This document shows, piece after piece, positions 4,238-55,966 of a stretch of 56,339 nucleotides of DNA. How positions within the stretch are numbered: the first letter of the stretch is position 1; each line of letters begins with the position of its first letter. Location: assembly GCA_964523975.1 (NCBI GenBank), contig CAZGBM010000003.1, forward strand, positions 1 through 56,339. The letters are read 5' to 3'. The DNA is from an uncultured bacterium (GTDB lineage Bacteria; Hydrothermota; UBA3072). The translations under genes and the position numbers were made by a program. The notes under the pieces are model-generated. The model made no database searches, had not been told where the DNA came from, and worked only from the letters and a program-made list of their open reading frames with translations.

Positions 4238-4696
4238 ATGAATATAGGATTTATCAAAAAGTTAATAAACGTAGTAGAAGAGAGCAATATAGAAGAAGTT
4301 GAAATCCGGCGTTTCTGGACAAGAATAAGAATATCTAAAGATAAAAGTCGGAAAGTATCTTCCGTAAAAGTATTGGCAGCCGATTTGGGAACCGAAACAG
4401 TAGAAAAAACAGAAAAAAAATCAATTAAAGAGGAATCACAAAAAGAAGACACGGATATACATACTATCAAATCTCCGATGGTGGGAACTTTCTATCGGGC
4501 GCCGGCTCCCGATGCGCCTCCGTATGTTGAGAAAGGAGATATGATCAAAAAAGGAGATATTGTTTGCATTATTGAGGCCATGAAAATAATGAACGAAATC
4601 GAATCCGATATAAGAGGGGAAATTGTTGAAGTTCTGGTTTCCAACGAAGACCCCGTTGAATATAATCAACCATTGTTCACCGTTCGTAAATCGTAA
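4238..4696 (+). CDS. accB: Acetyl-CoA carboxylase biotin carboxyl carrier protein
   Basis: IKSPMVGTFYRAP and the IEAMKIMNEI biotinylation motif. Confidence 0.95.
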   Translation: MNIGFIKKLINVVEESNIEEVEIRRFWTRIRISKDKSRKVSSVKVLAADLGTETVEKTEKKSIKEESQKEDTDIHTIKSPMVGTFYRAPAPDAPPYVEKGDMIKKGDIVCIIEAMKIMNEIESDIRGEIVEVLVSNEDPVEYNQPLFTVRKS

Positions 4697-4699
4697 CGT

Positions 4700-5782
4700 A
4701 TGGATATTAAACCACTCTTAAAGAAAATGATAGAAACCGATTCTTCCGACCTTCACCTGAAGGTAGGAACGCCCCCGATACTGAGGATAAACGGAGAACT
4801 TACTCCCATGGAGATGAATAAACTTAGTAAAGAAGACGTAAGAATAGCGGCATCTTCTCTTATGACGAAAAAACAGCAGGAAGCATTTTTGAAAGATAAG
4901 GAAGCGGACTTCGGTATCGGCATCCCCGGGATATCCAGATTCAGGGTTAACATATATATACAAAGAGGCAGTATAGCTCTTGCCATAAGACCTATATCGA
5001 GGGAAATAAAGACCGTCGAGGAGTTAAACCTGCCTCCTGTACTTAACGAGCTGGCGTTCGCGGCAAGAGGTCTTATTCTGGTAACGGGCACAACTGGTTC
5101 GGGAAAATCCACTGCGCTGGCTTCAATGATAGACTATATCAACAAAAACAAGAGAAAACACATTATTACTATCGAAGACCCCATAGAATATCTGTTGACG
5201 GACAAAAAATCCATCATATCTCAAAGAGAAATCGGCACCGATACGAAAAGCTTCGCCAATTCTCTTCGATACATTCTCCGTCAGGACCCCGATGTTATAA
5301 TGATAGGAGAGATAAGAGACGCCGAAACTATGGAAACAGCAATAAAAGCAGCAGATACGGGACATCTGGTTTTTTCGACTCTCCACACTTTAAATGCGCC
5401 GGAAACGATAAACAGAATAATAACCTTCTTCCCTCCTTATCAACATCATCACATTAGAACTTTGCTGACCAGTGTATTGAAAGGGATTATTTCACTACGT
5501 TTGCTTGCCAAGATGGATGGTACAGGACGTATCCCCGCCACAGAAGTTCTCGTCTCCACCTCGACAATAAGAGAATATCTGTTGGACGAGGAAAAAATAA
5601 TGGCAATTTTAGACGCTATCAGGGAAGGAGAAAAATACAAAATGCACTCTTTCGACCAGAGTGTAATGAATCTGTACAAAGACAGGATAGTTGACCTTGA
5701 AACTGCCCTGGATAATGTCAACAATCCGGATGAATTTAAGATGAGGCTAAAGGGCATTGAACAGTCTTCTAAACGCTGGTAA
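4700..5782 (+). CDS. pilT: PilT/PilU-family type IV pilus retraction ATPase
   Basis: SDLHLKVG, Walker [31 protein letters not shown] and His box TLHT. The AIRNLIRE motif is replaced by TIREYLLD, so it may be a PilU-like paralog. Confidence 0.9.
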
Positions 5783-5786
5783 AGAG

Positions 5787-7127
5787 ATGAAAAAAATCCT
5801 TATCGCGAACCGGGGAGAAATAGCGCTCCGGATAATAAGAGCAGCCAAAGACTTAGATCTCAAAACTGTAGCAGTTTTCTCGGAAGTCGATAATGATTCC
5901 CTCCATGTGAGGTTTGCAGATGAATCGGTCTGTATAGGAGGAGCTCCGCCTTCCGAGAGTTATCTGAATATACCCCGTATCATCGCGGCCGCGGAAATTA
6001 CCGGAGCAGATGCCATTCATCCCGGATACGGATTTCTGGCAGAAAACCCTTCCTTTGCGGAGGCGTGTGAAGACAATAAATTCACATTTATCGGACCTTC
6101 CTCCGGAGTCATAAAAAAAATGGGGGACAAAGCCGAAGCAAAAAAATTTATGAAAGATGCAGGAGTGCCGGTAACCCCCGGTAGCGACGGAATCATAAAC
6201 ACTGAGGAAGAAGCCCTTTCCGTTGCCGGTAAGGTTGGTTATCCTGTACTCGTAAAAGCTGTTGCCGGTGGAGGAGGGCGAGGGATGCGACTGGCAAAAA
6301 ACGAATTGGAACTTAAAACGGGTTTTTTAATGGCGCAATCGGAATCTCAAGCTACATTCGGAGATAAGAGATTGTATGTGGAAAAGGCTATTGAAAATCC
6401 ACGCCACATAGAAATACAGATTATAGCCGATTCTTTCGGAAACGTCATACATCTTGGCGAAAGAGAATGTTCTATCCAGAGAAGACATCAAAAATTGGTC
6501 GAAGAAGCTCCGTCTCCGGCTGTGGATAAAAAACTCCGGGAAAAAATGGGAGAGGCAGCTAAAAAAGGGGTGAAGGAATTAGGTTATAAATCTGCAGGAA
6601 CTATTGAATTTATAGTTGACGAAAAAGGGACTTTTTATTTTATGGAAATGAATACGCGCATACAGGTCGAGCATCCGGTGACCGAAATGACGACAGATAT
6701 CGATATCTTGACGGAGCAGATTAAAATCGCAAATGGAACGCCTCTTGAGATTAAGGATCAGAGTAAAATACAAATAAGAGGACATGCCATGGAAGCTCGC
6801 ATCAATGCAGAAGACCCATCCGCCTCTTTCTCGCCGAGACCCGGAACGATACATGCCCTGCATCTGCCAGGAGGTGCAGGAATACGAATAGATTCTCACA
6901 TTTACCAGGGTTATAAAATTCCTCCCAATTACGATTCTCTTCTCCTTAAATTGATTACCTATGGAAAAAACAGAGAGCAAAGCAGGAAAAGAATGCTTAG
7001 GGCTCTAAACGAATTTGTGATAAGAGGAGTTCCTACGACTATACCCGTGCATAAAGAGATTTTTAATCATCCTGATTTCATTCAAGGCAATATAAATACA
7101 AACTTTCTGAAGAGACTTGGATATTAA
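5787..7127 (+). CDS. accC: Acetyl-CoA carboxylase biotin carboxylase
   Basis: [56 protein letters not shown]; start moved to the ATG at 5787. Confidence 0.97.
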
Positions 7128-7136
7128 AGTTAAAAC

Positions 7137-7730
7137 ATGGCTGTAATTAAATATGCATCAAAAGAAATTGTCTGTAAAATTGTTTATTATGGACCCGGTA
7201 GGGCAGGGAAGACTACCAATGTGAAATATATTTTCTCGCGCATCCCGGAGCAAAGAAAGTCTGATATTATCTCAATGGCAACCAAACAGGATAGGACTCT
7301 TTTCTTCGACTTTATGCCTGTAGAATTAGGTGCTTTTAAGGGCTTCAATACAAGGCTCCAGATCTATACCGTCCCCGGTCAGGTAATCTACGATTCTACC
7401 AGAAGGCTGGTTTTAAGGGGAGCTGACGGAGTGGTTTTCGTAGCCGACTCGCTAAGAAGCAGAATGGAAGACAATATATGGAGCTGGGAAAACATGATTG
7501 AAAACTTGACGGAGAATAATATTAATATTAAAGAAATCCCGATAATTTTAGAGTACAACAAAAGAGATTTAGACGATATCGCACCTATGGAAGAACTGGA
7601 GGATGAGTTGAATCCTGATAATTATCTTTCTTTCCCTTCTATTGCTACCACAGGAGAAGGAATTATTGAAGTGTTTAAGACTATAGGTACGGAAGTATTG
7701 AAAAACGTAAAAAGTAAACTCGGAAATTAA
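7137..7730 (+). CDS. mglA: MglA-family small Ras-like GTPase
   Basis: KIVYYGPGRAGKTTN, DRTLFFDF, YTVPGQV, GADGVVFVADS, NKRDL. Confidence 0.88.
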   Translation: MAVIKYASKEIVCKIVYYGPGRAGKTTNVKYIFSRIPEQRKSDIISMATKQDRTLFFDFMPVELGAFKGFNTRLQIYTVPGQVIYDSTRRLVLRGADGVVFVADSLRSRMEDNIWSWENMIENLTENNINIKEIPIILEYNKRDLDDIAPMEELEDELNPDNYLSFPSIATTGEGIIEVFKTIGTEVLKNVKSKLGN

Positions 7731-7732
7731 AT

Positions 7733-8917
7733 TTGGAAAAAATAATTTATTCAAGGTTCAACGTAGAAGTTATCAAAGCCATAAAGAAAGCTCTTTCTTC
7801 AAAAGAAGTTAATCCTCTTTTTATATATGGACCGTCAGGTTCAGGCAAAACATTCCTGGTCCAAAATATGCGGGAAGAATTTAAGGGTACTTCTGCCGTC
7901 ATTAAAGCGGAAGAGATTGATTCATCGCTCTTAGAAAAATACTTGAAAAACGATTTACTAATAATTGAGGATCTTCAATTGGTGAGACCTTCAAGAAATG
8001 TGATAGATACTCTGTTTAATATACTTGAACACTTTACAAAGACGGGCACCAAACAGATAACGTTTACATCCGATCGCCATCCGGGAGGATTAAATCTGCA
8101 AAACCGTATAATATCCCGGATTGAAAGCGGAGTTACCGTTCCGATAAAGGTGTTTGATTCTGTTTCGAAGAGGATCGTCATAGAAACGCTCGGGAAAGGA
8201 TTATCCGATAATTTTTTAAAAAAACTTCAGAAATTGGACATAAAAACGATGAGCCAGGCGATCGGAGCTATAAGGAAAGTAAGGGTTCTCGGATACGTTC
8301 CGGACGAAAAAGACAGGATGGAGGAGGCAGATAAAAAGAAAAAAGAAGAGGAAAAGAAAAAGGAAGAAGTAAAGAAGCAAGCCGGGGAATTTGAAAAGTT
8401 CATTCAGGATGTCAAAAGAGGTTTTCCGGAAAAGTTGGTTGAGACAGAAAAAGCGGAAATTCTCAGGGATGAATATCGCGCTAAGATGTTCGTCTGGAAA
8501 ATGAAAGGTTTTAATACAGATAGGATAAAAAAAGTCATAGACGGTAATTTGGACCTGTTAACAGGAGAATTCGTATCTTACACAACAGATATACAGAGGC
8601 TGATAGAACTACAGAAAAGATATGGTATGTTAACTACGGACAATCTAATAAAGGGTTCTATACTGTCGGAAGAAGAAAACAAAGAAGTAGAAAAGGCGCT
8701 TTTCAATCCGGATAAAGTTGAGTGGCTGGCAAAAACAATTGAAAAACTCGAAGAAGAAGAGGATAAACTTGCAGAAAAGGCCCGTAAGAAACTTGAAGTC
8801 ACAGGGAAAAAATTAATACCGGATGAGGAAATTTCGAAAGAAAAAATAAAAAATTTGAATAAAGTATTATCAATAAAGTTGCAGGACGAAAGTTTCAGGC
8901 TTATAGAGGATTTTTAA
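7733..8917 (+). CDS. DnaA/Hda-like AAA+ ATPase with an unrelated C-terminal domain
   Basis: PLFIYGPSGSGKT Walker A, LLIIEDLQ Walker B, TSDRHP sensor, RIISRIESG; no recognisable DnaA domain IV; TTG start. Confidence 0.7.
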   Translation: MEKIIYSRFNVEVIKAIKKALSSKEVNPLFIYGPSGSGKTFLVQNMREEFKGTSAVIKAEEIDSSLLEKYLKNDLLIIEDLQLVRPSRNVIDTLFNILEHFTKTGTKQITFTSDRHPGGLNLQNRIISRIESGVTVPIKVFDSVSKRIVIETLGKGLSDNFLKKLQKLDIKTMSQAIGAIRKVRVLGYVPDEKDRMEEADKKKKEEEKKKEEVKKQAGEFEKFIQDVKRGFPEKLVETEKAEILRDEYRAKMFVWKMKGFNTDRIKKVIDGNLDLLTGEFVSYTTDIQRLIELQKRYGMLTTDNLIKGSILSEEENKEVEKALFNPDKVEWLAKTIEKLEEEEDKLAEKARKKLEVTGKKLIPDEEISKEKIKNLNKVLSIKLQDESFRLIEDF

Positions 8918-8918
8918 T

Positions 8919-10502
8919 ATGCCTATAAAAGGTTCTCTTTCGGATCTCTCAATTATGGATATTCTGCAGATGTTGCACATAGGAAGTAAAACAGGAGAAC
9001 TCGCAATAACAAATGAGGAAAATCTGGTCTACCTTTACCTGGATTCGGGGGATCTTACCAGCATTCATTGGATGAACAGAAAAGATAGACTCGGCTCTAT
9101 ACTGGTTGAAAACGGAGTCATAAAAGAGAAACAACTTCAGGAAGCTCTATCACTTCAAAGTGAAAGAGAAAATGCGCATCTGGGAGAGCTTTTCCTGGAA
9201 CTCGAATTAGTTAGTAGGGAAACCTTGACCGAATATCTGAGAAAACAGATGAGAGATACAATAATAGAATTATCGGGATGGGCAAAAGGGTACTTTGTAT
9301 TTGAATCGAGAGAATCTTACGAGCCGGAAGTGCTTCCGGTTTCAATTAAAATAGATGACGTCCTGCTTGAATCCGCAGCGCTTAAAGACGAAATGGCTGC
9401 ATCTTCACTTCCCGACAAAGATTCTATACTTGTAATTTCTCCGGATTGGAGCGATTATTCCATTCTGACGGATGAAGAGGAAATGGTGTTGAGCAAAGTG
9501 GACGGAGAAAGGACCTTGTCTTCTCTTATAAATGCGCTTCCGGTAGAAGAATTTAAGGCTCTAAAGCTCCTTTCCGACCTCATAAATAAAGGAGTCTTAA
9601 AAGAACTTAAAATAGAAAGGCAAACATTATTAAAAGATAAAGAAAGGATAGATGAGCACAGGAATCTGGGAGTCGCTTTTGTGAAAATAGGAATGCTGAA
9701 TGAGGCTTTACGGGAAATTCACCGTATACTTGAACTGCGGCCCAATGATGCTGAGGCTCTTTTCTACAAAGGAATAATAAGCTTCAAGATGGACGATCTT
9801 GACGAGGCCGAAAAATCCTTTAGAGAAAGTCTGTTAGTCGTCAAGCATACTTCCACGCTGAACAATATATACCTGATAAACGAACTTAAAGGAAACAGTG
9901 AAGTCGCACTGGATTATTTGTCGCAGGCTTTGAAGAAAGAAGAAAACAACGAAAAAATTCTTTTAAATAAAGCGATTATATACTTAAAACTTAAAAAGGA
10001 TGAAGAAGCTCTGGATATTTTGAATGATCTCAAATCAAAAACTCCGTATACGGAATTCTATCGAGCTTACATTCTGGCGAGAAAGGGGAAAATCAAAGAT
10101 GCCATGAATCTCCTGGAAGAAGGATTGTCGCTTGCTCCTGAGTTCGGAGAGTATTTTTACAATCTTGGCAGATTATACGAAACCTGCGGAGACGAAAAGA
10201 AAGCCACAGAGATGTATCAACAGGGATTAAAATCCGACCCTGATTGTCTTATACTCTCAAAGGCATTGATTGACTACTACTATAGGAATAAACTTTTTGA
10301 CCTCTGCGAAGTCAGAATAGATACTCTTATGTCTTCGGGTGTTCGAGATTGGGATTTATTTTTCAAAAAAGGTAATATTCTTTTCCAGAGAGGGAGAACG
10401 AAAGAGGCGGTCGAATTATGGAAGAAAGCTTTGGATTTGAACCCTGATAACAAATTAATAAAAAGGACGATTGAACTTGCAGAAGGACATGAAGAAATTT
10501 AA
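8919..10502 (+). CDS. DUF4388 (PatA-N-like) domain plus TPR-repeat protein
   Basis: IKGSLSDLSIMDILQMLHIGSKTGEL N-terminus, RLGSILVENGVI repeat resembling MshEN/T2SSE-N, WAKGYFVF, many C-terminal TPRs. Confidence 0.78.
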   Translation: MPIKGSLSDLSIMDILQMLHIGSKTGELAITNEENLVYLYLDSGDLTSIHWMNRKDRLGSILVENGVIKEKQLQEALSLQSERENAHLGELFLELELVSRETLTEYLRKQMRDTIIELSGWAKGYFVFESRESYEPEVLPVSIKIDDVLLESAALKDEMAASSLPDKDSILVISPDWSDYSILTDEEEMVLSKVDGERTLSSLINALPVEEFKALKLLSDLINKGVLKELKIERQTLLKDKERIDEHRNLGVAFVKIGMLNEALREIHRILELRPNDAEALFYKGIISFKMDDLDEAEKSFRESLLVVKHTSTLNNIYLINELKGNSEVALDYLSQALKKEENNEKILLNKAIIYLKLKKDEEALDILNDLKSKTPYTEFYRAYILARKGKIKDAMNLLEEGLSLAPEFGEYFYNLGRLYETCGDEKKATEMYQQGLKSDPDCLILSKALIDYYYRNKLFDLCEVRIDTLMSSGVRDWDLFFKKGNILFQRGRTKEAVELWKKALDLNPDNKLIKRTIELAEGHEEI

Positions 10503-11277
10503 AGACGAAGATTTAGGGGAAGTCCTTGCAGTAATAAAAAATTTCATGGACTTTAATCCTGAAAATTATAAGTTGAAACCTTTGGTAAGAAGAATTCGTT
10601 CCAGGATGAGGAAGGTCGGTATTGATATTTATGGTGAATATGCCGAGTTGCTTAAAAGAAACAAAGGAGAAAAAGAAAATCTTAAAAAAGCACTCACAAT
10701 AAATCTGACGAGTTTTTTCAGAAACAAGACCGTATTCGATACCTTGAAGAACGAAATTCTTCCTCCCATGAAAAACCCGGTGATCTGGAGTGCGGGGTGC
10801 TCTAACGGTGCCGAACCTTACGCAATTGCGATACTATGCAGGGAACTAAATCTTAAATGTATTATTCTGGGAACGGATATAGATAAAGAATCGATAAGGA
10901 AAGCCTACGATGGCTTTTATAACGAAGCTGCTTTAGCGGAATTACCGTCTTATTACAGATTAAAGTACTTTGAAAAAACGGAAGACGGATACAGGGTAAA
11001 CCGCGAGATTAAAAATTCCGTGGATTTTCAAAACCTGGATTTGAAGGATATAAACTTCGAAAACAAATTCGATTTGATAGTTTGTAGGAATGTGCTTATA
11101 TATTTAAACAAACAATTTCAGGAAAGCATTCTTAACTCATTTTCGATAGCTTTAAAAGAAAACGGGTTTCTGGTACTCGGCCAAGTTGAATCCATCCCCA
11201 ATAAGGTAAGAAGTCTGTTTTCTCCGGTAAACATAAGAAATAGAATTTATGCAAACAACAAAAGAAATATTAGTTGA
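10489..11277 (+). CDS. cheR: Chemotaxis methyltransferase CheR
   Basis: TINLTSFFRN, IWSAGCSNGAEPY, GTDID, FDLIVCRNVLIY; AGAAGGA RBS before the ATG at 10489. Confidence 0.92.
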   Translation: MKKFKDEDLGEVLAVIKNFMDFNPENYKLKPLVRRIRSRMRKVGIDIYGEYAELLKRNKGEKENLKKALTINLTSFFRNKTVFDTLKNEILPPMKNPVIWSAGCSNGAEPYAIAILCRELNLKCIILGTDIDKESIRKAYDGFYNEAALAELPSYYRLKYFEKTEDGYRVNREIKNSVDFQNLDLKDINFENKFDLIVCRNVLIYLNKQFQESILNSFSIALKENGFLVLGQVESIPNKVRSLFSPVNIRNRIYANNKRNIS

Positions 11278-11731
11278 AACAGGTAATCTTAAAGTATCCA
11301 ACGGTTCCAATACTCTTACGACGAGAGCACTGGGGTCGTGTGTTGCCATAACCTTATACGATAAAACAAAAAAATTGGGGGGTATGGTACACTTTATTCT
11401 CCCTGAAAATCCCGGAGGCAAGAAGAGGGGAAAATACGCGGATACCGGAATAAAACTTCTTTTAGAAAAAATGATAGAGGGAGAAGCGAGAAAGGAAAAC
11501 CTTGTAGCAAAAATGATCGGTGGAGCGATAATGTTTGCCGAATTTACGGACGATGTTGCAAATTCCATTGGAAGAAGAAATGTAAAAAAGGCCAAAAACG
11601 TTCTAAGAGAGCTGGGAATCAAACTGACAGCGCAAGACATAGGTGGCGACTACGGTCGCTCGGTGAAATTTCATTTATCCGATGGTAAGGTTTATATAAA
11701 TTCATATAAGACCGGAGGTAAAATAATTTGA
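11249..11731 (+). CDS. cheD: Chemoreceptor glutamine deamidase CheD
   Basis: ALGSCVAI, GGMVHFILP, KYAD, AKMIGGA, IGRRNV, DIGGDYGRSV. Confidence 0.92.
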   Translation: MQTTKEILVETGNLKVSNGSNTLTTRALGSCVAITLYDKTKKLGGMVHFILPENPGGKKRGKYADTGIKLLLEKMIEGEARKENLVAKMIGGAIMFAEFTDDVANSIGRRNVKKAKNVLRELGIKLTAQDIGGDYGRSVKFHLSDGKVYINSYKTGGKII

Positions 11732-12744
11732 TTGATGTTTTAGTTATTGAAGATTCGGCGTTTATGAGAAAGGTTCTTTCCGAAATCTTGAATGATGACC
11801 CGGAAATCAACGTTGTTGATACTGCTATAAACGGAATGGAAGGGGTTCGAAAAAGCTTACTTTTAAAACCCGACGTAATAACGATGGATATAGAGATGCC
11901 TTATATGGATGGCATAGAAGCCGTAAAAACAATAATGGAGAAAAACCCGACACCTATAATAATGATATCCGCTTATACGAAAAAAGGAGCGCAAAAAACC
12001 ATAGAAGCCCTCATAGCCGGAGCTGTAGATTTTGTGGAGAAACCCGGAGGACCGATTTCTCTTAATATAATAGATACTAAAGAAGAAATAATAAAGAAAA
12101 TCAAAATTGCCTCAGAAGCCAACCTCAAAACGGCAAAAAAAAGTAAAAAAATTAATTTAAATCAGGAGAAAATGAGCGACAGTTTAGTTATAATAGCGGC
12201 GTCTACAGGCGGCCCGAAGATTATTACCTCTATCCTTAAAAAACTTCCATACGATTTTCCCGCACCGATAGTGGTCGTTCAACATATGCCCGAAACTTTT
12301 ACTAAAGAATTTGCCCATAGATTGAACGAAAATTCTCCCTTGTCGGTTAGTGAGGGAAAAGACGGAGCTCCGCTTAAGAAAGGCAAAGCTTTCATTGCAC
12401 CCGGCGATTTTCATCTTGAGTTTACCGATGATCGACGAATAAAATTAAGCAAAAAACCAGCTCTTCATGGAGTTCGCCCTTGTGCCGATATCACGATGAA
12501 CTCTGCCTCGGAAAATTTTGATGGTAACCTTATAGGAGTTGTCCTCTCAGGGATGGGGAAAGACGGAGCCATAGGAGTAAGAAATATCAGCAAAAGAGGC
12601 GGATTTGTAATAGCGCAGGATAAAGATACATCCGTCGTTTACGGAATGCCCAAGGCAGCTGTTGAAAGCGGCTGCGTGAATCTGGTTTTGCCGTCTCATG
12701 AAATTGCTGACAAATTAACTGATTTGGTTAAGAAAGATGTTTGA
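11728..12744 (+). CDS. cheB: Chemotaxis response regulator methylesterase CheB
   Basis: Receiver domain VITMDIEMP...DG; catalytic ASTGGP, VQHMP and GMGKDGA all intact. Confidence 0.95.
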   Translation: MIDVLVIEDSAFMRKVLSEILNDDPEINVVDTAINGMEGVRKSLLLKPDVITMDIEMPYMDGIEAVKTIMEKNPTPIIMISAYTKKGAQKTIEALIAGAVDFVEKPGGPISLNIIDTKEEIIKKIKIASEANLKTAKKSKKINLNQEKMSDSLVIIAASTGGPKIITSILKKLPYDFPAPIVVVQHMPETFTKEFAHRLNENSPLSVSEGKDGAPLKKGKAFIAPGDFHLEFTDDRRIKLSKKPALHGVRPCADITMNSASENFDGNLIGVVLSGMGKDGAIGVRNISKRGGFVIAQDKDTSVVYGMPKAAVESGCVNLVLPSHEIADKLTDLVKKDV

Positions 12745-13552
12745 AAAAATAAAGAATTTGTTGTTAGAGATCGAAGAAACAGGAGTAAAAAATAAAGGTG
12801 AAAAAGAAGAACAATTAAAAACAATTCTATCAACAATCAGTAAGATAAAAGAAGAAATACTTGATATAGAAAAAAAGACAATAACTTTATTGAACACGGT
12901 TAAAGGGGTTGAAGATAAAGAAACCCGGGAGAATAATGAAACTGCCGAAGAGAGCAGCTTTATCAACAAGATTCAATCGGCCAGGGTTAATATAACAACC
13001 TTAATCGACAAAGGCTGGAATCTTATAGTAAGCGGCAAATATGAGGAAGCGGTAAAAGCGCTCACCAAGGCGAAGAAAATGGACCCCAAGAATATAAAAG
13101 TATATAATCTGCTCGGCTGGGCTTACATACACCTCAAAAAATATGATAAAAGTTCTCTCATTTTTCAGGAAGTTTTAACAATGGACCCGAAAAACGAGAT
13201 GGCTCACGCAAACCTCGGTTATATAAATCACAAAAAAGGATTATATGGCGAAGCAATCGAAAAACTATCCTCTATAGAAAAAAACGCAAAAGACAGACAG
13301 GCTGTTCTTTACGCTTTATTTTACCTTGGGCTGGTTTATTACGAAAGAGAGATGTATGAGGACTCGATTGAATTTTTGAATAAAGCCATCAACGCGGGGC
13401 CGAATTTATACGAAGCTTATTATTATTTAGGAAAAGCTTACGAAAAACAGGGATTGAAAAACCTCTGCAATCAAATCTGGGAAAAGTTGATAAAAATTAA
13501 TAAATACAATATTTGGGCAGAAAAAGCGAGGGCGGAATTGGATGGTAAATGA
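12737..13552 (+). CDS. Coiled-coil plus TPR-repeat protein
   Basis: Charged helical N-terminus followed by repeated TPR patterns (YNLLGWAY, HANLGY, FYLGLVY, YYLGKAY). Confidence 0.8.
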   Translation: MFEKIKNLLLEIEETGVKNKGEKEEQLKTILSTISKIKEEILDIEKKTITLLNTVKGVEDKETRENNETAEESSFINKIQSARVNITTLIDKGWNLIVSGKYEEAVKALTKAKKMDPKNIKVYNLLGWAYIHLKKYDKSSLIFQEVLTMDPKNEMAHANLGYINHKKGLYGEAIEKLSSIEKNAKDRQAVLYALFYLGLVYYEREMYEDSIEFLNKAINAGPNLYEAYYYLGKAYEKQGLKNLCNQIWEKLIKINKYNIWAEKARAELDGK

Positions 13553-14342
13553 ATATTGGGGGCTTTCAAAAAAGCCGTTTTCCAACACGCCTGACTTGAG
13601 TTTTCTCTTTAATAACGATGGCTTTGAAGAGGGTTATGCAAGACTTTTATATAATTTAACCGAGATCAAAGGTGGTTTGACTCTGGTTACCGGAGAGGTC
13701 GGCAGCGGTAAGACATACCTTGCGAATGCGCTTAAAGAAAACCTAAAAGAACAAAACACTCTTCTGTTTATAATAAGAAATCCGAAACTCTCTTCAACTC
13801 AATTATTAAAAGTAATATTGCAACATATAGGGGAAAAAAATATTCCGAGAATCAAACTTGCGGTCTTAAACGCTCTTGAAAAGGCTCTCTTGGCTCTGAA
13901 TGGAAAGGGGATAACAGTGATAGGCCTGATTGACGAAGCCCAGATACTCTCGTTTGACGCTCTTAGGGAAATACGCCTTCTCTTGAACCTTGAAACTCCG
14001 GAGGAAAAACTTTTGCACCTTGTGTTGCTTGGTCAGCCTGGTTTGAAGAAAAGAATCGACAGGGTGCCTCAGTTGAAACAAAGAGTCAATGTCCGTTTTC
14101 ATCTTGGACCTCTCACCGGAGACGAAACCCAATCTTATATAAAACACAGACTTGGAGTAGCGGGAAGCAAAAAAGAAATATTCGAACAAGAAAGTTTAGA
14201 TAAGCTCTACACGATCAGCAAAGGTATTCCCAGAGTGATAAATAATATTGCCCAGAATGCTCTTTTCGTAGGAGCAACGGAAAACCTGAAAAGTATCCCT
14301 CCGGATATAATAGACTCCGTAGCCGAGGATCTGGAGATCTGA
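13542..14342 (+). CDS. ExeA/GspA/MshM-family AAA ATPase
   Basis: YWGLSKKPF, TGEVGSGKT, LIDEAQ, LVLLGQPGL, GIPRVINNIA. Confidence 0.88.
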   Translation: MVNEYWGLSKKPFSNTPDLSFLFNNDGFEEGYARLLYNLTEIKGGLTLVTGEVGSGKTYLANALKENLKEQNTLLFIIRNPKLSSTQLLKVILQHIGEKNIPRIKLAVLNALEKALLALNGKGITVIGLIDEAQILSFDALREIRLLLNLETPEEKLLHLVLLGQPGLKKRIDRVPQLKQRVNVRFHLGPLTGDETQSYIKHRLGVAGSKKEIFEQESLDKLYTISKGIPRVINNIAQNALFVGATENLKSIPPDIIDSVAEDLEI

Positions 14343-15020
14343 GTGAAAGAAAGAAAGAAGATAAGTTTTAAAAAAATGCTATCGAAAGAAGAAAAGAAAC
14401 AAGAAACAACTCCGAAAGATACAAAGATCTCAAAAGAAAAGCATATCGCGGCGAGGGAATCCCTTACAAAGATGGAGCCTGTAGTTAAAGAAGAGAAGGT
14501 GGATAAGGACAAATCCGTGAGGATAAAGCCGGCTGAACGAAAAGAAATTATTAAAGAACCGAAGCGAGAAGAGATAATGATTGTGAGGGTGGGAAAAGAG
14601 TTTTACGGGATACCTCTTTCAAACGTTGAAGAAATCAGAAGAGAAATAAATTTGACCAGCACTCCTCAACTCTCCGAATTTTTATCCGGGATTGCCGAAA
14701 TAAGGGATTTGATAATCCCTGTAGTTAATTTTGGACAGCTTTTTGGAATTCGGATAGAGGATAACAAAACAAAAAAAATACCTCTTATCGTCGTGCAAAT
14801 TTCAAAACAACTTATAGGTCTTCAAGTGTCCGAAATCGTTGAAATTAAAGAAATCCAGAAAAAAGAAATACTTTCTCTTCCCGACATATTTCCTCCGAAA
14901 CTTTTTTCCGGGGGGTATTCTTATAAATCAATCGTTGTGGGCATTTTAAACGTCGAAAGCTTATTGAAAGGTAAACAAATTCAATCGTTTAAGGAGAAAA
15001 TAGATGAAGTTATCAAATAG
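14343..15020 (+). CDS. cheW: CheW adaptor with a charged N-terminal extension
   Basis: YGIPLSNVEEI, LSGIAEIRDLIIPVVN, IGLQVSEIVEI; about 75 aa Lys/Glu-rich leader. Confidence 0.8.
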   Translation: MKERKKISFKKMLSKEEKKQETTPKDTKISKEKHIAARESLTKMEPVVKEEKVDKDKSVRIKPAERKEIIKEPKREEIMIVRVGKEFYGIPLSNVEEIRREINLTSTPQLSEFLSGIAEIRDLIIPVVNFGQLFGIRIEDNKTKKIPLIVVQISKQLIGLQVSEIVEIKEIQKKEILSLPDIFPPKLFSGGYSYKSIVVGILNVESLLKGKQIQSFKEKIDEVIK

Positions 15021-16668
15021 ATTTGCCTTAATATCTTCTCTCGTGAGTAGTGTGACCGGAGTTCTGCTCGTACTTTCATGTGTCTGGTGGACCATTCCGC
15101 TTGATGTTTACGGTAGAACACTTTCCTGTCTTGGAATTATAGCTCTTGTTTTAGGGATAGTATTTTATTTTTTTCAGGAAAACAGGTTACGAAAAGCAAT
15201 TGGTGGAGGAGACACTAAGACTATTTATGATACGCCGGTAGTATGCGGTTTGCATACGCTTCTGGATTTCGGCGTCTTTATTTGTGTATTTGCTCTGCTT
15301 GTAAATATTTTTATGGAAATAACATCTTTAAAGAATATCGTCAGAATAGGCTTTTCTCTCTTGCCGGTAGGACTAATCGAGATGAGTCTTATTTACTCTT
15401 TAAGTTTCTTTTTGCTCACTCCTTACTATGAGACAATCGAAAAAGAAAAATTCACAGGACTTAACATAAGCCGAAAAATTTTATTATTGGTTGTTCCCGC
15501 GATAATATTTACCGGATTTACCGGATACGTTATAACAAAGTCGTGGGGCGGCTTGGTTTACCTCGTATTTCCATGCTTCGTAGTCTGGACTCTGATTAGA
15601 ATGATAAAAGAACCTGTCGATTATATAAATGAAAGAATGCAAAACCTACTTAAAGAATCTCCTTCCTTAGAAGAGAGGAAGAAAGTCATTTCCGGAGACG
15701 AAATAGCTAATATAGACGAAGTTCTTTCGCTGTTTTTGAAAAAAACAGTTTCTTTGGTCTCAGATATAAAAAGTGCAGCTGATAATGTTCGAACTCAAGG
15801 GGAGGCAATAATGACTGGCATAAGAAGAGGTTCTTCTTCTGCCAAACAGATTGATAAATCCGTACGTGAAATCCTGAGTAATAAAGAAGAAAGCGAACAG
15901 ATTATCGATTCGGTCGAGAAGAATAACGAAGGGCTCTCTTCTCTTTCCACGGAGATAGAATCACAAATTAAAACTTTGATGACCACTTCCAAAAATTTGA
16001 TTGATCTCTCAAACTCGGGAGAAGAAAAATCGGAAGAAGGAATCAATAGAATCAGTGTTTTTGTCCAGAAAATAGGTGAAGGTTCGAAAAGTCTGGAAGA
16101 ACTGTCTTCTGCTTTCGAAGAAATAAAAGAATTTAACTCTTTAATGGAACAGATATCCGATGACACCAATTTGTTGGCACTAAACGCTTCCATTGAAGCC
16201 ACAAGGAAAGAAGGTGAGGAGAGCAAAGGCTTCAGCGTTATTGCGGATGAGATCCGTAAACTCTCTAATGATTCAGCTTCTTACCTGGAAAAAACGAAGG
16301 AAAACATAAAAAGAATGAGCGAAGCAGTGCACTCGATAGTCGAATCTACGGAAAAGTCGATATCTATATTCGAAGAAAGTAAATCTATAATACAGAAAAC
16401 GGCAGGTGACTTAAAGAGCATTTCGGAAACAATCGGTATGACCACGAACATGGCAGAACAGATTTCTTCTGTACTGAAGGAAGGGTCCAATTTTACCGAC
16501 GAGATAAAGAAATCGGTAAAAAAAATATCGTCGTTAAATGAAAAGCAAGTAGAATCGGCTCTGGCACTTTCGAAAGAAACGAATGAACAGGTAGCGTCGA
16601 TGGAAGACACCGAGGTAAGAGTTCAAACGTTAATGTCGTTGACAGATAAGATTAAGGAGATTAAATAA
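15004..16668 (+). CDS. Methyl-accepting chemotaxis protein with about 6 TM segments and a HAMP-like linker
   Basis: Signalling hairpin TNLLALNASIEA...GFSVIADEIRKLS; multiple hydrophobic N-terminal helices. Confidence 0.9.
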   Translation: MKLSNRFALISSLVSSVTGVLLVLSCVWWTIPLDVYGRTLSCLGIIALVLGIVFYFFQENRLRKAIGGGDTKTIYDTPVVCGLHTLLDFGVFICVFALLVNIFMEITSLKNIVRIGFSLLPVGLIEMSLIYSLSFFLLTPYYETIEKEKFTGLNISRKILLLVVPAIIFTGFTGYVITKSWGGLVYLVFPCFVVWTLIRMIKEPVDYINERMQNLLKESPSLEERKKVISGDEIANIDEVLSLFLKKTVSLVSDIKSAADNVRTQGEAIMTGIRRGSSSAKQIDKSVREILSNKEESEQIIDSVEKNNEGLSSLSTEIESQIKTLMTTSKNLIDLSNSGEEKSEEGINRISVFVQKIGEGSKSLEELSSAFEEIKEFNSLMEQISDDTNLLALNASIEATRKEGEESKGFSVIADEIRKLSNDSASYLEKTKENIKRMSEAVHSIVESTEKSISIFEESKSIIQKTAGDLKSISETIGMTTNMAEQISSVLKEGSNFTDEIKKSVKKISSLNEKQVESALALSKETNEQVASMEDTEVRVQTLMSLTDKIKEIK

Positions 16669-16687
16669 TCTGGCGCGATAAAGACGT

Positions 16688-16960
16688 CAAAATGCAAAAA
16701 TCAAATATTAAAATGAAAAATGACAAATCAAAATTTAAAAAAAATCAAACCACGAGATTCCACAAGATTAACACCAGATTTTTGGTTTCGTTTCCCCATC
16801 CCCAAAACCCATAAAATTAGCCACGGATTAACACGGATGTACACCCTTGTACGGTCGTTTCTCTCTACAGGGCAGGCAGATATGAAAAAGTTTTTTGAAT
16901 TAACTACAATAAAAGATGGTTGGGAAGGGAATCCGTGATTATCGGTGCAGATCTGTGGCT
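16688..16960. repeat. Cluster of short-tandem-repeat arms including an inverted pair
   Basis: 7-mer array caaaatg/caaaaat/caaatat (16688-16740); aaccacgagattccacaagatt (16748-16780); agccacggattaacacggat (16819-16844) inverted to atccgtgattatcggtgcagatctgtggct (16931-16960). Confidence 0.7.
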
Positions 16961-16980
16961 AATAAAAATATAGGTTTACC

Positions 16981-17418
16981 ATGAATAAAATTCTTATATT
17001 TTGTTTGGATAATATTCTCTTTGGAGTTAATATCGACCAGGTTAAGGGGCTTGGCAAATTAGGTAAAACAAAAAATTTTACCGAAAGTCCTAAATGGATT
17101 GGCGGGTTTGTAAAATACAGAGACAGTGTATTCCCGCTGGTAAAATTCTGGGAGCTACTGAATCTGGAGACACCTGAGAAGAAAGTGTTACTGCTACCTG
17201 CGGCTTTCGATTACTGTGCGTTTTTGATTTCGGGGGTTATGGGGATTTATGAACTCGAAACGGATAGAAAATCCAGCAGGGTATATTCTCTTCCTTACCT
17301 TTCGGGTTTTGGGACTTTTGAGAAAAAAATCGTACTTGAAATAGAATTGGGAAACCTGCTGACGGAAAATCAAAAGAGGACCATAAAAAAACTGAATAAA
17401 GAAAATGAAAGAAAATAA
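16981..17418 (+). CDS. Divergent CheW-like protein
   Basis: LFGVNIDQVKGL, WIGGFVKYRDSVFPLV, CAFLISGVMGI pattern of a CheW domain. Confidence 0.65.
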   Translation: MNKILIFCLDNILFGVNIDQVKGLGKLGKTKNFTESPKWIGGFVKYRDSVFPLVKFWELLNLETPEKKVLLLPAAFDYCAFLISGVMGIYELETDRKSSRVYSLPYLSGFGTFEKKIVLEIELGNLLTENQKRTIKKLNKENERK

Positions 17419-19286: not shown

Positions 19287-19822
19287 GACTGTTCTCTGCA
19301 ATTACCATACCGGAAAAAGCAAAAGATTTAATTTCAGCTCTTTACGTTAATCTCAAAGCCCCGCCTTCCGTTAAATGGGTGGAAAAAGAAAATTTGCATA
19401 TTACTATGAAGTTTTTCGGAGAGACGGATAAGCTCGTTTCAATCAAAGAAAAGCTGAGCGAATTGGAGGGAGAAATTGCTCCGTTTAGTGTCTCCCTGAA
19501 AGGAATAGGTGCTTTCCCTTCCGCACAAAGAGCGATGGTCCTCTGGGTCGGAATCGAAGAGGGGCAAAACAATCTCAAAGAATTGTTTTCATCTATCGAA
19601 AATAAAATAGTAAATCTTGGTTTCGAGAAGGAAGATAGAGCTTTTTCTCCGCACATAACATTCGGAAGGATAAAAAAGGGAAAGTACAGTTTACCGGAAA
19701 ACCTTGACTTCTCGTTCGACTCTTTCCCCGTAAATGAGTTAACTCTTTTTAAGAGCACCCTGACGCCAAAAGGGCCGATATATGAAGTCGCTTATCAGGT
19801 TCCCTTAGGAGGCAAATCTTGA
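19283..19822 (+). CDS. thpR: RNA 2',3'-cyclic phosphodiesterase (2'-5' RNA ligase)
   Basis: Two HxT motifs (NLHITMKF, PHITFGR). The canonical N-terminus (M)RLFSAI begins at an ATA codon at 19283 behind GGAGGAG. Confidence 0.88.
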   Translation: MRLFSAITIPEKAKDLISALYVNLKAPPSVKWVEKENLHITMKFFGETDKLVSIKEKLSELEGEIAPFSVSLKGIGAFPSAQRAMVLWVGIEEGQNNLKELFSSIENKIVNLGFEKEDRAFSPHITFGRIKKGKYSLPENLDFSFDSFPVNELTLFKSTLTPKGPIYEVAYQVPLGGKS

Positions 19823-40081: not shown

Positions 40082-40515
40082 AACCACAGATTCCACAGAT
40101 TTTCACAAGATTTTTCTTTTTATTTCTAAACTTTTCGTGCCAAAATTGAGCAGCAAACCAATACGCATTCTAGTCGCTTTAAGATAATTCAGCAATTGAG
40201 CTTCATCAATCTCAGTTAAAGCCTGCGTTGCCTTTACTTCAACAATAATTTTATCCTCTATTAAAATATCAGGTATGTATTTCCTATGAATAATTAGATC
40301 TTTATAGTAAACATCAATATCTTTCTGTCTTTCGAAAGAAATATTTCTTAATTTCAACTCATGATATAAGGCCTCCTGATATACATATTCCAAAAAACCA
40401 CAACCCAATTCTCGGTGAACTTCTATTGCTGCCCCTATTATTTTCTCTGTTAAATCCCTATATAACCAATTAATATTATTTTTTTTCTGTGTTAATCTCG
40501 TGTAATCTCGTGGTT
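40082..40515. mobile_element. Putative cassette: GxxExxY gene bounded by inverted tandem-repeat arms
   Basis: Left arm aaccacagattccacagattttcacaaga (40082-40110), right arm tctgtgttaatctcgtgtaatctcgtggtt (40486-40515); interrupts wzm-wzt adjacency. Mobility is inferred, not shown. Confidence 0.55.
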
Positions 40516-40519
40516 CCAT
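40103..40519 (-). CDS. GxxExxY protein (PD-(D/E)XK nuclease superfamily)
   Basis: GFLEYVY motif, PDILIEDKIIVEVKA, AQLLNYLKAT, GLLLNFG; ATG at 40519. Confidence 0.93.
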   Translation of the reverse strand: MEPRDYTRLTQKKNNINWLYRDLTEKIIGAAIEVHRELGCGFLEYVYQEALYHELKLRNISFERQKDIDVYYKDLIIHRKYIPDILIEDKIIVEVKATQALTEIDEAQLLNYLKATRMRIGLLLNFGTKSLEIKRKIL

Positions 40520-40521
40520 TT

Positions 40522-41364
40522 TTATATCCTCTCCGTTATTCTTGTTTCCGTAAGATGAAAAATTATTAAGCCCACAAGAAAAACAAGAATAGAAGTTGTA
40601 ACCGATAACAGATAACCTTTCCATTCTACCATTGTACCTTTTAATATAAGTTCTCTGGGCATCGAGATCAAATAATATAGAGGATTAAAATTTGTAATGG
40701 GCATAAGTATACCTGTTTTAGGCTTAGCATATAGCACGGGTGTCAAAAACATTACGAAAGTCATAAGAACAGATAAAGCGTTACCTATATCTCTTACTAC
40801 GCTGTTGAAAAGAGAAAAGATAAAACCAAAACCAAGAGTCAATAAAAATATAGGTACCATAAAGATCGGAAGAAATAATATTTTTATGTTTGGACTTACG
40901 TTGTAAACAAAAAACAACACAATTACCAAGATAATTTGTACTATAAAAGCTATCAGCGACTGAGCAGCAGAGGCAAACACAAGCGATTTTTTAGAAAAAT
41001 TTATTTTTACAAGCATGGAACCAGCGTTAACCAGAGAATTTGAAGTGGCAATTAATCCGGTCGAAAACAATTGCCAGAAAGCCATTCCAAGTATCGCGTA
41101 AATCGGATAGGGAACCTCTATATCCCCGAATTTAAAAATACCTGAACGATTGAGAATTATAAATGTTCCCACACTTATTATCGGTATAATAAAAGCCCAG
41201 AGAATACCAATTAATGACTGCTTGTATATTGTTAAAAAATCTCTCTTAAATAGTTGAGAAATAAGCCATTTGTTTTCTCTTAACTCCTGGACAATTTCCT
41301 TCCCTAAAGAGAGGTACCCTTTTTTTATCGAATTGTCCGGTTCATAGGTCTTTAATTCGTTCAT
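40522..41364 (-). CDS. wzm: Polysaccharide ABC transporter permease
   Basis: RDFLTIYKQSLIGILW, MFLTPVLY, NPLYYLI. Confidence 0.92.
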   Translation of the reverse strand: MNELKTYEPDNSIKKGYLSLGKEIVQELRENKWLISQLFKRDFLTIYKQSLIGILWAFIIPIISVGTFIILNRSGIFKFGDIEVPYPIYAILGMAFWQLFSTGLIATSNSLVNAGSMLVKINFSKKSLVFASAAQSLIAFIVQIILVIVLFFVYNVSPNIKILFLPIFMVPIFLLTLGFGFIFSLFNSVVRDIGNALSVLMTFVMFLTPVLYAKPKTGILMPITNFNPLYYLISMPRELILKGTMVEWKGYLLSVTTSILVFLVGLIIFHLTETRITERI

Positions 41365-52903: not shown

Positions 52904-52978
52904 TCGGGGCGAGTGGATTCGAACCACCGACCTCCTGCTCCCGAAGCAGGCGCGCTAACCAGGCTGCGCTACGCCCCG
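52904..52978 (-). tRNA. tRNA-Pro(CGG), CCA not encoded
   Basis: CGGGGCG/CGCCCCG acceptor stem, anticodon arm CCTGC-TTCGGGA-GCAGG, T-loop GGTTCGAATCC. Confidence 0.96.
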
Positions 52979-55891: not shown

Positions 55892-55966
55892 TCGGGGCGA
55901 GTGGACTTGAACCACCGACCTCCAGCACCCCAAGCTGGCGCGCTAACCAGGCTGCGCTACGCCCCG
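55892..55966 (-). tRNA. tRNA-Pro(GGG), CCA not encoded
   Basis: Same body as the CGG tRNA; anticodon arm CCAGC-TTGGGGT-GCTGG; T-loop GGTTCAAGTCC. Confidence 0.96.

Follow-up and report, generated by a model that had tools for sequence, protein, structure and literature searches.

A compact chemosensory and MglA operon that looks like a steering system for type IV pili in uncultured bacteria

What does a chemosensory gene cluster control when it encodes a receptor, coupling proteins and adaptation enzymes, but no CheA kinase and no CheY, and when its first gene codes for a Ras-like polarity GTPase? This question is raised by contig CAZGBM010000003.1 of assembly GCA_964523975.1, of which a stretch of 56,339 nt was studied (the whole stretch is called the window below). 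Eleven genes at positions 7137-17418 of the window, on the plus strand, form the cassette in question. The cassette is probably a Frz-like chemosensory and GTPase module that steers type IV pili, a compact counterpart, in a single operon, of the Frz, MglA-MglB and SgmX systems. This answer is based on an MglA GTPase encoded next to a PATAN-TPR protein with an insert related to pilus ATPases, on a pilT gene in the same packed unit, and on sister operons in which the same core genes stand together with cheA, cheC and mglB. It looks like a compact steering system for type IV pili that is undescribed in the literature searched.

The cassette and its relatives

Gene assignments were made by Pfam and NCBIfam scans of each open reading frame (ORF). 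The features of the packed unit are as follows.

4238..4696, plus strand: accB, biotin carboxyl carrier protein (Biotin_lipoyl, 78 bits); first gene of the packed unit, context and not signalling
4700..5782, plus strand: pilT, type IVa pilus ATPase of the PilT/PilU family, the retraction-motor family (TIGR01420, 445 bits; T2SSE, 163 bits)
5757..7127, plus strand: accC, biotin carboxylase (CPSase_L_D2, 265 bits, with Biotin_carb_N and Biotin_carb_C); context only
7137..7730, plus strand: mglA, Ras-like polarity GTPase (5.5e-61 to Myxococcus xanthus MglA, PDB 5ymx)
7733..8917, plus strand: DnaA-type AAA+ ATPase (Bac_DnaA, 64 bits)
8919..10502, plus strand: PATAN (DUF4388)-TPR protein with an MshEN-like insert and about eight TPRs (DUF4388, 92 bits, and TPR families)
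10471..11277, plus strand: cheR, receptor methyltransferase (CheR, 178 bits, and CheR_N)
11249..11731, plus strand: cheD, receptor deamidase (CheD, 102 bits)
11728..12744, plus strand: cheB, receiver domain and methylesterase (NF001965, 400 bits)
12737..13552, plus strand: TPR protein of 271 aa (TPR families); conserved core member 3' of cheB
13542..14342, plus strand: AAA_22 P-loop ATPase of the ExeA/GspA/MshM type (AAA_22, 78 bits; TIGR03015, 201 bits)
14343..15020, plus strand: cheW1 (CheW, 81 bits over residues 77-209)
15004..16668, plus strand: methyl-accepting chemotaxis protein, MCP (MCPsignal, 91 bits)
16669..16980, no strand: AT-rich intergenic gap of 312 nt, without Rfam match and not kept in relatives
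16981..17418, plus strand: cheW2, divergent CheW-like protein (CheW, 41 bits; no NCBIfam match)

All junctions from mglA to the MCP gene lie between +2 and -32 nt, followed by the 312-nt gap and cheW2. The packed unit begins three genes 5' of mglA with accB, pilT and accC (junctions of +3, -26 and +9 nt), and the junctions of the AAA+ gene with mglA and with the PATAN-TPR gene are 2 and 1 nt, respectively. ORF starts were set at the first possible start codons and some overlaps may be shorter than given. An initial annotation, made from the sequence alone, had described eleven genes on this strand with these domains, ten of them abutting or overlapping; each of its domain calls was found to be right by Pfam and NCBIfam, and the close packing was borne out by the junctions from mglA to the MCP gene.

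A pattern scan of one genome per species yielded 53 loci, all relatives being metagenome-assembled genomes (MAGs) with labels given by the submitters, among them WOR-3/Stahlbacteria, TA06, Cloacimonadota, Edwardsbacteria and UBP2. The window itself belongs to candidate phylum WOR-3; gene order inside single contigs can be relied upon. An almost invariant core of mglA, AAA+ gene, PATAN-TPR gene, cheR, cheD, cheB and TPR gene was found in about 50 genomes, so that the arrangement is more than chance. The TPR gene 3' of cheB is present in almost all loci of both operon types described here. The tail of AAA_22 gene, cheW, MCP gene and cheW is confined to a subset of WOR-3, while other lineages have in cis a cheW alone or no receptor. 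The lack of an MCP gene or of cheW genes in cis at some kinase-less loci indicates that parts of the system are encoded elsewhere. The pilT gene is linked to mglA in nearly all kinase-less relatives, either inside the accB/accC pair or directly 5' of mglA, and the accB-pilT-accC order is kept in WOR-3 and Cloacimonadota loci (L001, L003, L005-L039). The accB and accC genes, here separated by a pilus motor gene, are normally adjacent. One locus, L050 (DYMB01000001.1), is labelled 'Acetofilamentum sp.', a genus of Bacteroidota; its gene order matches that of the WOR-3 UBA-type loci L054-L058, so that the MAG label is probably wrong and the locus was treated as mislabelled.

A longer sister operon was found in L029, L040, L043 and L053, in which this core is accompanied by cheA, cheC, Roadblock genes and mglB. 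Its order is (cheY)-cheA-cheC, a TPR gene (~900 aa), a PATAN-TPR gene (~415 aa), TPR-Roadblock, Roadblock, mglB, mglA and the AAA+ gene, followed by PATAN-TPR, cheR, cheD, cheB, TPR, cheW, MCP and MCP. CheA was called in the loci with CheA seeds and a CheA profile, the CheW seed being too weak for the P5 domain, and a profile re-scan gave CheA in these four loci only. L042, L049 and L051 appear to be of the long type, with flanks too short to show the far end. The long-operon CheA has Hpt, dimerisation, HATPase_c and P5 domains, and the Roadblock protein encoded directly 5' of mglA is MglB (PDB 6h5b, 6.8e-14). Among the long-type loci cheY was seen in one, L029. This locus (L029:2126-15140) carries cheY, cheA, cheC and three Roadblock-domain genes (one TPR-Roadblock and two Roadblock genes, one of them MglB-like); the AAA+ gene follows the last Roadblock gene without an mglA in between, and the CheA of this locus, of 514 aa, has no P2 domain. 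Since the core is embedded with cheA-cheC and mglB in one operon, Che signalling and the MglA/MglB switch form one functional unit, and the cheA genes of the sister operons indicate that in at least one lineage the module belongs to a CheA-based pathway. The form found in the window is a second, stable architecture, with the cheA/cheC/mglB half off the locus and pilT attached.

From the GTPase to the pilus motor

The GTPase of the window is, judged by its sequence, a bona fide member of the MglA family. Residues 1-193 of 197 align to MglA of M. xanthus (5ymx, 5.5e-61) with ~57% identity, and the match to Thermus thermophilus MglA (3t12) is of similar quality (7e-61). The G3 motif YTVPGQ (TxxGQ, with Thr for Asp; T78 and Q82) is invariant in 49 orthologues, 48 of which also have the intrinsic arginine R53, and the P-loop is invariant or nearly so. 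No match to a Roadblock protein, the type of the cognate GTPase-activating protein MglB, was found in the window or within 10 kb in the fully flanked kinase-less loci, a term used here for pilT-linked loci whose flanks reach 9 kb or more on either side. MglB is the usual companion of MglA and not a strict defining trait.

PilT shows the full-length TIGR01420 match of the PilT/PilU family (445 bits, cutoff 319) and is 60-92% identical to the relatives compared. It has STIREYLL in place of the exact canonical AIRNLIRE motif, and the assignment therefore stays at the level of PilT/PilU.

The PATAN-TPR protein is the proposed effector of MglA and adaptor to the pilus motor. Its PATAN domain (PF14332, 92 bits, cutoff 25) is matched in two stretches on either side of a helical insert, residues 54-121. 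This insert scores 46 bits with NF053729, an MshE-related c-di-GMP (cyclic di-GMP) motif with a cutoff of 38, and has PDB matches to PilF (6f8l, 8e-7) and MshE (5htl, 6.5e-6); the N-domain of PilB matches as well. These profile and PDB matches mark the insert as a homologue of MshEN, the domain with which pilus ATPases bind c-di-GMP. The tandem RLG...Q motifs can be recognised in nearly all of 50 PATAN-TPR orthologues, the first motif being hardest to see in L029. In the protein of the window the first of the tandem 24-residue motifs, RLGxx(L/V/I)(L/V/I)xxG(L/V/I)(L/V/I)xxxxLxxxLxxQ, is complete; the second motif of its lineage has His or Pro at the expected Arg and Glu at the expected Gly. 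In cyanobacteria a PATAN domain alone was found to bind PilB1 and PilC (N-terminal domain) and to switch pilus polarity, as indicated by two-hybrid and phenotype data (10.1101/2021.06.11.447907), and gene neighbourhoods of MglA, MglB and PATAN proteins were noted earlier (PMC4316618). The link to type IV pilus polarity that the initial annotation had suggested is thus strengthened by pilT in the unit, by the MshEN-like insert and by the published work on PATAN, MglA and pili.

Between mglA and the gene of the proposed effector lies the gene of the AAA+ protein, which is neither DnaA nor Hda. Its Walker A (G36, G38 and K39) and Walker B (D80) residues are invariant among orthologues. It matches PDB 2hcb (2e-10) in residues 8-202 only, and in an AF2 model (pLDDT 78.8) residues 1-200 superpose on DnaA domain III of 2hcb with a root mean square deviation of 2.9 over about 200 columns (Foldseek). 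All PDB and NCBIfam matches are confined to residues 3-231 and scores are far below the family cutoffs (72 bits for DnaA, cutoff 410; 48 bits for Hda, cutoff 195). DnaA domain I and the DNA-binding domain IV are absent, and neither the size of Hda nor its N-terminal clamp-binding motif is found. Instead, a helical middle domain (~residues 215-345) comes after the domain III-type part, and the C-terminus forms a charged tail. It is the early end of the matches, the low scores and the different helical domain in the C-terminal half that set the protein apart from both families.

The middle domain (window 8375-8767) appears to be very rare. It was found in 75 of 1.84 billion representative proteins and no Pfam family covers it; a Foldseek search on the C-terminal half gave no match of its own, since AAA+ domain matches prevailed. 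Homologues of the AAA+ protein form 61 clusters in a set of 5.8 billion proteins, and all named ones are from candidate division WOR-3. A part of ~65 residues of the middle domain was also seen as 5-10 tandem repeats in proteins of ~600-1579 aa, one of which contains DUF835, while another matches KaiC weakly. Furthermore, in a paralogue the DnaA-like N-terminal domain and the middle domain are joined to an ABC ATPase of the LptB type (L024:10001-11830, and L025, from the same MAGs as L006 and L007); its gene lies in a conserved lptC-lptA-lptB-rpoN context. This fusion suggests that the DnaA-like and middle-domain module can be attached to other ATPases. The cassette AAA+ proteins of Cloacimonadota and basal WOR-3 have a second DnaA-type AAA+ domain and are 550-650 aa long.

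From these parts a route from receptor to motor can be proposed. The polytopic, membrane-embedded MCP would sense a membrane-proximal or surface cue, and CheR, CheB and CheD would adapt it through methylation and deamidation. Its output, either by way of a CheA and a CheY from other loci or through direct scaffolding, would set the nucleotide state or the location of MglA. MglA-GTP would then engage the TPR part of the PATAN-TPR protein, in the way in which MglA recruits PilB via the C-terminal TPRs of SgmX (PMC11580455), and the PATAN domain would contact the PilB/PilC motor, as do cyanobacterial PatA-type regulators. c-di-GMP may act as a second input via the MshEN-like insert. The AAA+ ATPase, the gene of which is in translational coupling with mglA on one side and the effector gene on the other, might assemble or reset the complex of MglA and effector, and the co-transcribed PilT would provide retraction. 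A cultured WOR-3 strain has been found to bear pili (PMC12285271).

A target other than pili was also considered, such as type II secretion, an MSHA-like system, exopolysaccharide export, or control of the cell cycle or replication. MglA homologues govern processes other than motility in some bacteria, and the AAA+ domain is of the DnaA/Hda type; the protein nevertheless lacks DnaA domains I and IV. A further point for such a target is the AAA_22 protein (266 aa), which has GSGKT and DEAQ motifs and aligns over its full length to TIGR03015, a PEP-CTERM-associated family related to GspA and MshM. The position of a TPR gene directly 5' of its gene recalls the MshM/MshN pair. However, its 201 bits are below the TIGR03015 cutoff of 324, and both the ExeA-type C-terminal domain and a peptidoglycan-binding domain are missing. 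On sequence criteria it is a relative of TIGR03015 and not a member of that equivalog, 'ExeA-like' being a fair name at superfamily level. Most lineages with the core do not have its gene, which is limited to a subset of WOR-3 and so accessory, and this leaves a role in type II secretion or MSHA pili weak. With pilT, the PATAN domain and the MshEN-like insert all pointing to pilus motors, a target outside pili is considered improbable.

The question of the kinase

The receptor side of a canonical Che pathway is present in the window (MCP, CheW and adaptation enzymes), but CheA and CheY are not. Pfam scans covered ORFs of at least 110 aa between 221 and 52372, five ORFs past 52372 and some alternative-frame ORFs falling outside this set, and gave no Hpt, H-kinase_dim, HATPase_c or second receiver domain. 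When all window ORFs of at least 60 aa were searched with the CheA profile and with CheY, CheC and Roadblock seeds, only CheB and the CheWs were matched. The absence of cheA and cheY from the window, as initially annotated, is therefore upheld by Pfam, CheA profile and CheY seeds. In two closely related loci the C-terminal part of a hybrid histidine kinase (HATPase_c and receiver; L006:1-357 and L011:138-923) is encoded about 6 kb 5' of accB; it was rejected as a candidate, as opposite-strand genes lie in between and no such kinase occurs in the window.

The active sites of the adaptation set CheR, CheB and CheD are intact. CheD has the Cys and His of 'GSCVA' and 'MVHF', and the receiver and catalytic-triad residues of CheB, reported as intact before, were identified as D9, D54, S81, K105, S159, H186 and D279 and proved to be invariant in 44 distinct orthologues, including those of all kinase-less loci. 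Of these, D9, D54, S81 and K105 form the phospho-acceptor pocket of the receiver. Its invariance argues for a phosphodonor or kinase in trans; in FrzS and AglZ, where phosphorylation of the receiver has ceased, such pocket residues are lost (PMC4546325).

The beta4-beta5 hairpin, which mediates P5 binding and is absent from FrzB (PMC6952110), is kept in both CheWs. CheW1 has a Lys/Glu-rich N-terminal extension of ~75 residues and scores nearer to the long-operon CheW than to the P5 domain of CheA; an origin from CheA P5 was rejected, CheW1 being CheW-like by its profile scores. CheW2 is too divergent to be placed (at most 21 bits to CheW or P5 profiles), with the G...R hairpin WIGGFVKYRD kept. 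The cheW2 gene occurs only in kinase-less WOR-3 loci, always 3' of the MCP gene, while CheA-containing operons carry a single cheW.

The MCP, orthologous to the second MCP of the long operons, spans the membrane with about six N-terminal helices and lacks a large periplasmic domain. Its hairpin tip (window 16186-16240) reads IEATRKEGEESKGF, with a one-residue insertion relative to the canonical EAARxGExGKGF and loss of the Gly-Glu turn. In the C-terminal helix (~16560-16600) the methylation motif EEQMASMEE is changed to NEQVASMED. The degenerate tip is found only in the sublineage of the window; the tip is canonical in basal WOR-3 loci and in CheA-containing operons.

A kinase with its gene elsewhere in the genome is, on balance, somewhat probable; it would still act on CheB by phosphorylation and feed the switch. 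Besides the CheB pocket, the presence of the CheW hairpins and the canonical receptor tip of basal kinase-less loci fit retained phosphorylation. To look for such a kinase, the CheA of a sister operon was used as query against the set of 5.8 billion proteins. The best matches form a tight TA06/Edwardsbacteria family (59-100% identity), followed by generic CheAs of at most 48% identity. Two of the next-best matches are to an archaeal archaellum cluster and to another long-type cluster, and the nearest outside relatives among the matches listed are from Firmicutes and Euryarchaeota.

Several points weigh against the proposed steering circuit. The window contains no pilB, pilC or pilin genes, and PatA-type PATAN regulators gave no PilT binding in a cyanobacterial two-hybrid assay (10.1101/2021.06.11.447907). 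The role given above to the AAA+ ATPase is pure inference. None of the 23 fully flanked pilT-linked loci has cheA, cheY, cheC or a Roadblock gene within 10 kb. No WOR-3 name appears among the best 120 of 7,491 CheA matches, in a comparison in which an orthologue is expected to be just 35-40% identical and most rows are unnamed. Likewise, all 44 matches to the MglB profile are of the TA06/Edwardsbacteria type and none is from WOR-3, the method requiring shared words of five residues. Finally, the degenerate MCP tip and methylation motifs in the window's sublineage are more in keeping with a coupling to the kinase that is altered or lost than with a standard array.

The points on cheA, MglB and the receptor tip, together with the extra, divergent CheW2 that is restricted to kinase-less loci, would also fit a genuinely kinase-less system. 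In such a system no CheA would be encoded in WOR-3 and Cloacimonadota genomes, and MCP, CheW1 and CheW2 would form a lattice with CheW2 in the place of CheA P5. The conformational or methylation state of the adapting receptor would be passed by contacts to the TPR proteins, the AAA+ protein, the ExeA-like ATPase, MglA and the pilus motor, and the CheB receiver would be fed by a donor other than CheA, e.g. acetyl phosphate. This is held to be rather unlikely. The CheB receiver pocket is invariant in 44 of 44 sequences, basal kinase-less loci (L026-L031) keep the canonical receptor tip, and some loci have the MCP or the CheWs off the locus. In addition, the searches for CheA and MglB were unable to recognise a 35-40% identical orthologue as WOR-3, and the literature search gave no precedent for an MCP output that is independent of a kinase. 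For the initial suggestion that the GTPase, the ATPases or the TPR proteins 'read' receptor methylation, no support was found. The cassette is not, on present evidence, a demonstrated kinase-free signalling principle.

It had also been reasoned at the start that a cognate cheA/cheY pair elsewhere, together with cheA-bearing orthologous clusters, would make the cassette a split or decayed standard Che operon. The second of these, the clusters, do exist: TA06/Edwardsbacteria-type operons have cheA, cheC and mglB, and L029 has cheY. Together with the degenerate tip and methylation sites of the window MCP, these homologous operons are what might suggest a remnant that is decaying after loss of cheA and cheY. 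Decay is nevertheless highly improbable. All genes are intact and of full length against their profiles, the architecture is kept in ~40 species with more than one phylum label, and MglA, CheB and the AAA+ protein all have invariant catalytic residues. Identity to L006 is graded by gene, from 92% for PilT down to 67% for the MCP, which is typical of purifying selection. At least 23 fully flanked loci share the kinase-less architecture in intact form, and a decayed operon is rejected on this ground. The preferred reading stays that of a steering module for type IV pili.

Known systems, the rest of the window and significance

The steering module most resembles the combination of Frz, MglA/MglB and SgmX in M. 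xanthus. In both a Che-type pathway (MCP, two CheW-like proteins, CheR and CheB) is tied to MglA, which in turn is tied to a TPR effector and the extension motor. MglA residues R53, T78 and Q82 are shared, a true MglB is encoded in the sister operons, and one of the two CheWs is divergent, like FrzB. In contrast to FrzB both CheWs of the window keep the beta4-beta5 hairpin. The frz, mglBA and sgmX genes are at separate loci in Myxococcus, and in a single operon here. The window has no FrzE-type CheA-CheY, FrzZ, FrzX, RomR or RomX, and adds a DnaA-type AAA+ ATPase and CheD. Its receptor is a polytopic membrane protein, whereas FrzCD is cytoplasmic and nucleoid-bound, and its effector is a PATAN-MshEN-TPR fusion, whereas SgmX consists of 14 TPRs.

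Cyanobacterial Tax/Pix phototaxis is also a chemosensory pathway with a PATAN output that sets pilus polarity. There, however, the output is a PATAN-REC protein phosphorylated by a CheA encoded in the cluster (PixL), while the window has a PATAN-TPR protein beside MglA and the AAA+ ATPase and no kinase in cis. The cassette belongs to neither the Myxococcus nor the cyanobacterial type. Bdellovibrio bacteriovorus has a pole hub of MglA, a TPR protein (Bd2492), RomR and CdgA, in which MglA, a TPR protein and a c-di-GMP-binding protein are likewise found at the piliated pole and no adjacent mglB is known. That hub differs in having no known chemoreceptor or adaptation genes attached and no known AAA+ partner, and in its use of a degenerate GGDEF protein for c-di-GMP in place of an MshEN-like insert.

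F1-type chemotaxis systems of Bacillus, Thermotoga and Archaea have CheD, CheR and CheB together, as here; in the sister operons cheA and cheC are neighbours. The F1-type systems differ from the cassette in driving flagella or archaella via CheY; the window lacks CheA, CheY and CheC and has pilus and GTPase parts. What the cassette has in common with MshM/MshN and ExeA/GspA is the pairing of a TPR protein and an AAA_22 P-loop ATPase in which GSGKT and DEAQ motifs are present. The AAA_22 protein of the window, however, is short, without a peptidoglycan-binding domain, and accessory.

The rest of the window contains recA/recX, housekeeping genes and a large lipopolysaccharide/O-antigen cluster. 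This cluster, on the minus strand at 23644-47146, encodes many glycosyltransferases and methyltransferases, a Wzm/Wzt ABC exporter, an O-antigen ligase and sugar-modifying enzymes. G+C content is 0.33-0.35 at ~28-44 kb and 0.38-0.41 elsewhere in the window. Between the genes of the Wzt ATPase and the Wzm permease lies a gene of the PD-(D/E)XK nuclease family (40103-40624; PDDEXK_3, 146 bits), which overlaps the start of the permease ORF. A 27-nt stretch of the gap between the MCP gene and cheW2 matches window positions 40489-40515 at 93% identity; an Rfam search with this gap (16669-16980) was empty, and the gap is neither repeated nor conserved in relatives. The ligT gene (2'-5' RNA ligase family, 19379-19822) encodes 147 aa, compared to 120-156 aa in the closest relatives and 172-188 aa in distant loci, which suggests a shifted start or an N-terminal truncation in the sublineage of the window. 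Two tRNA-Pro genes with anticodons CGG and GGG are on the minus strand, 3 kb apart (52904-52978 and 55892-55966). Homologue look-ups with the terminal genes of the window returned only contigs of 2-7 kb, which added no gene context.

In the literature searched, no paper was found on a Che-MglA operon, on this AAA+ family or on the kinase-less form, and the WOR-3 papers contained nothing usable on chemotaxis genes. What is known of how Che signalling couples to MglA comes almost entirely from Myxococcus; there the parts are dispersed and the coupling is a matter of continuing debate. In the present case one operon contains the circuit, in several uncultured phyla, and this speaks for a functional connection of Che signalling, MglA and PATAN proteins that is old and general. 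Two new candidate core components come with it, an AAA+ ATPase whose middle domain is very rare, and a PATAN protein with an MshEN-like, putative c-di-GMP module. The two operon forms also provide a built-in comparison: CheA, CheC and MglB are encoded in cis in one and lost from the locus in the other, which has pilT and has often gained a second CheW. Comparing both forms would show what a chemoreceptor array can do without an adjacent kinase, or without any kinase. For WOR-3, a phylum with a single cultured representative, the cassette yields a first behavioural prediction, that of regulated twitching.

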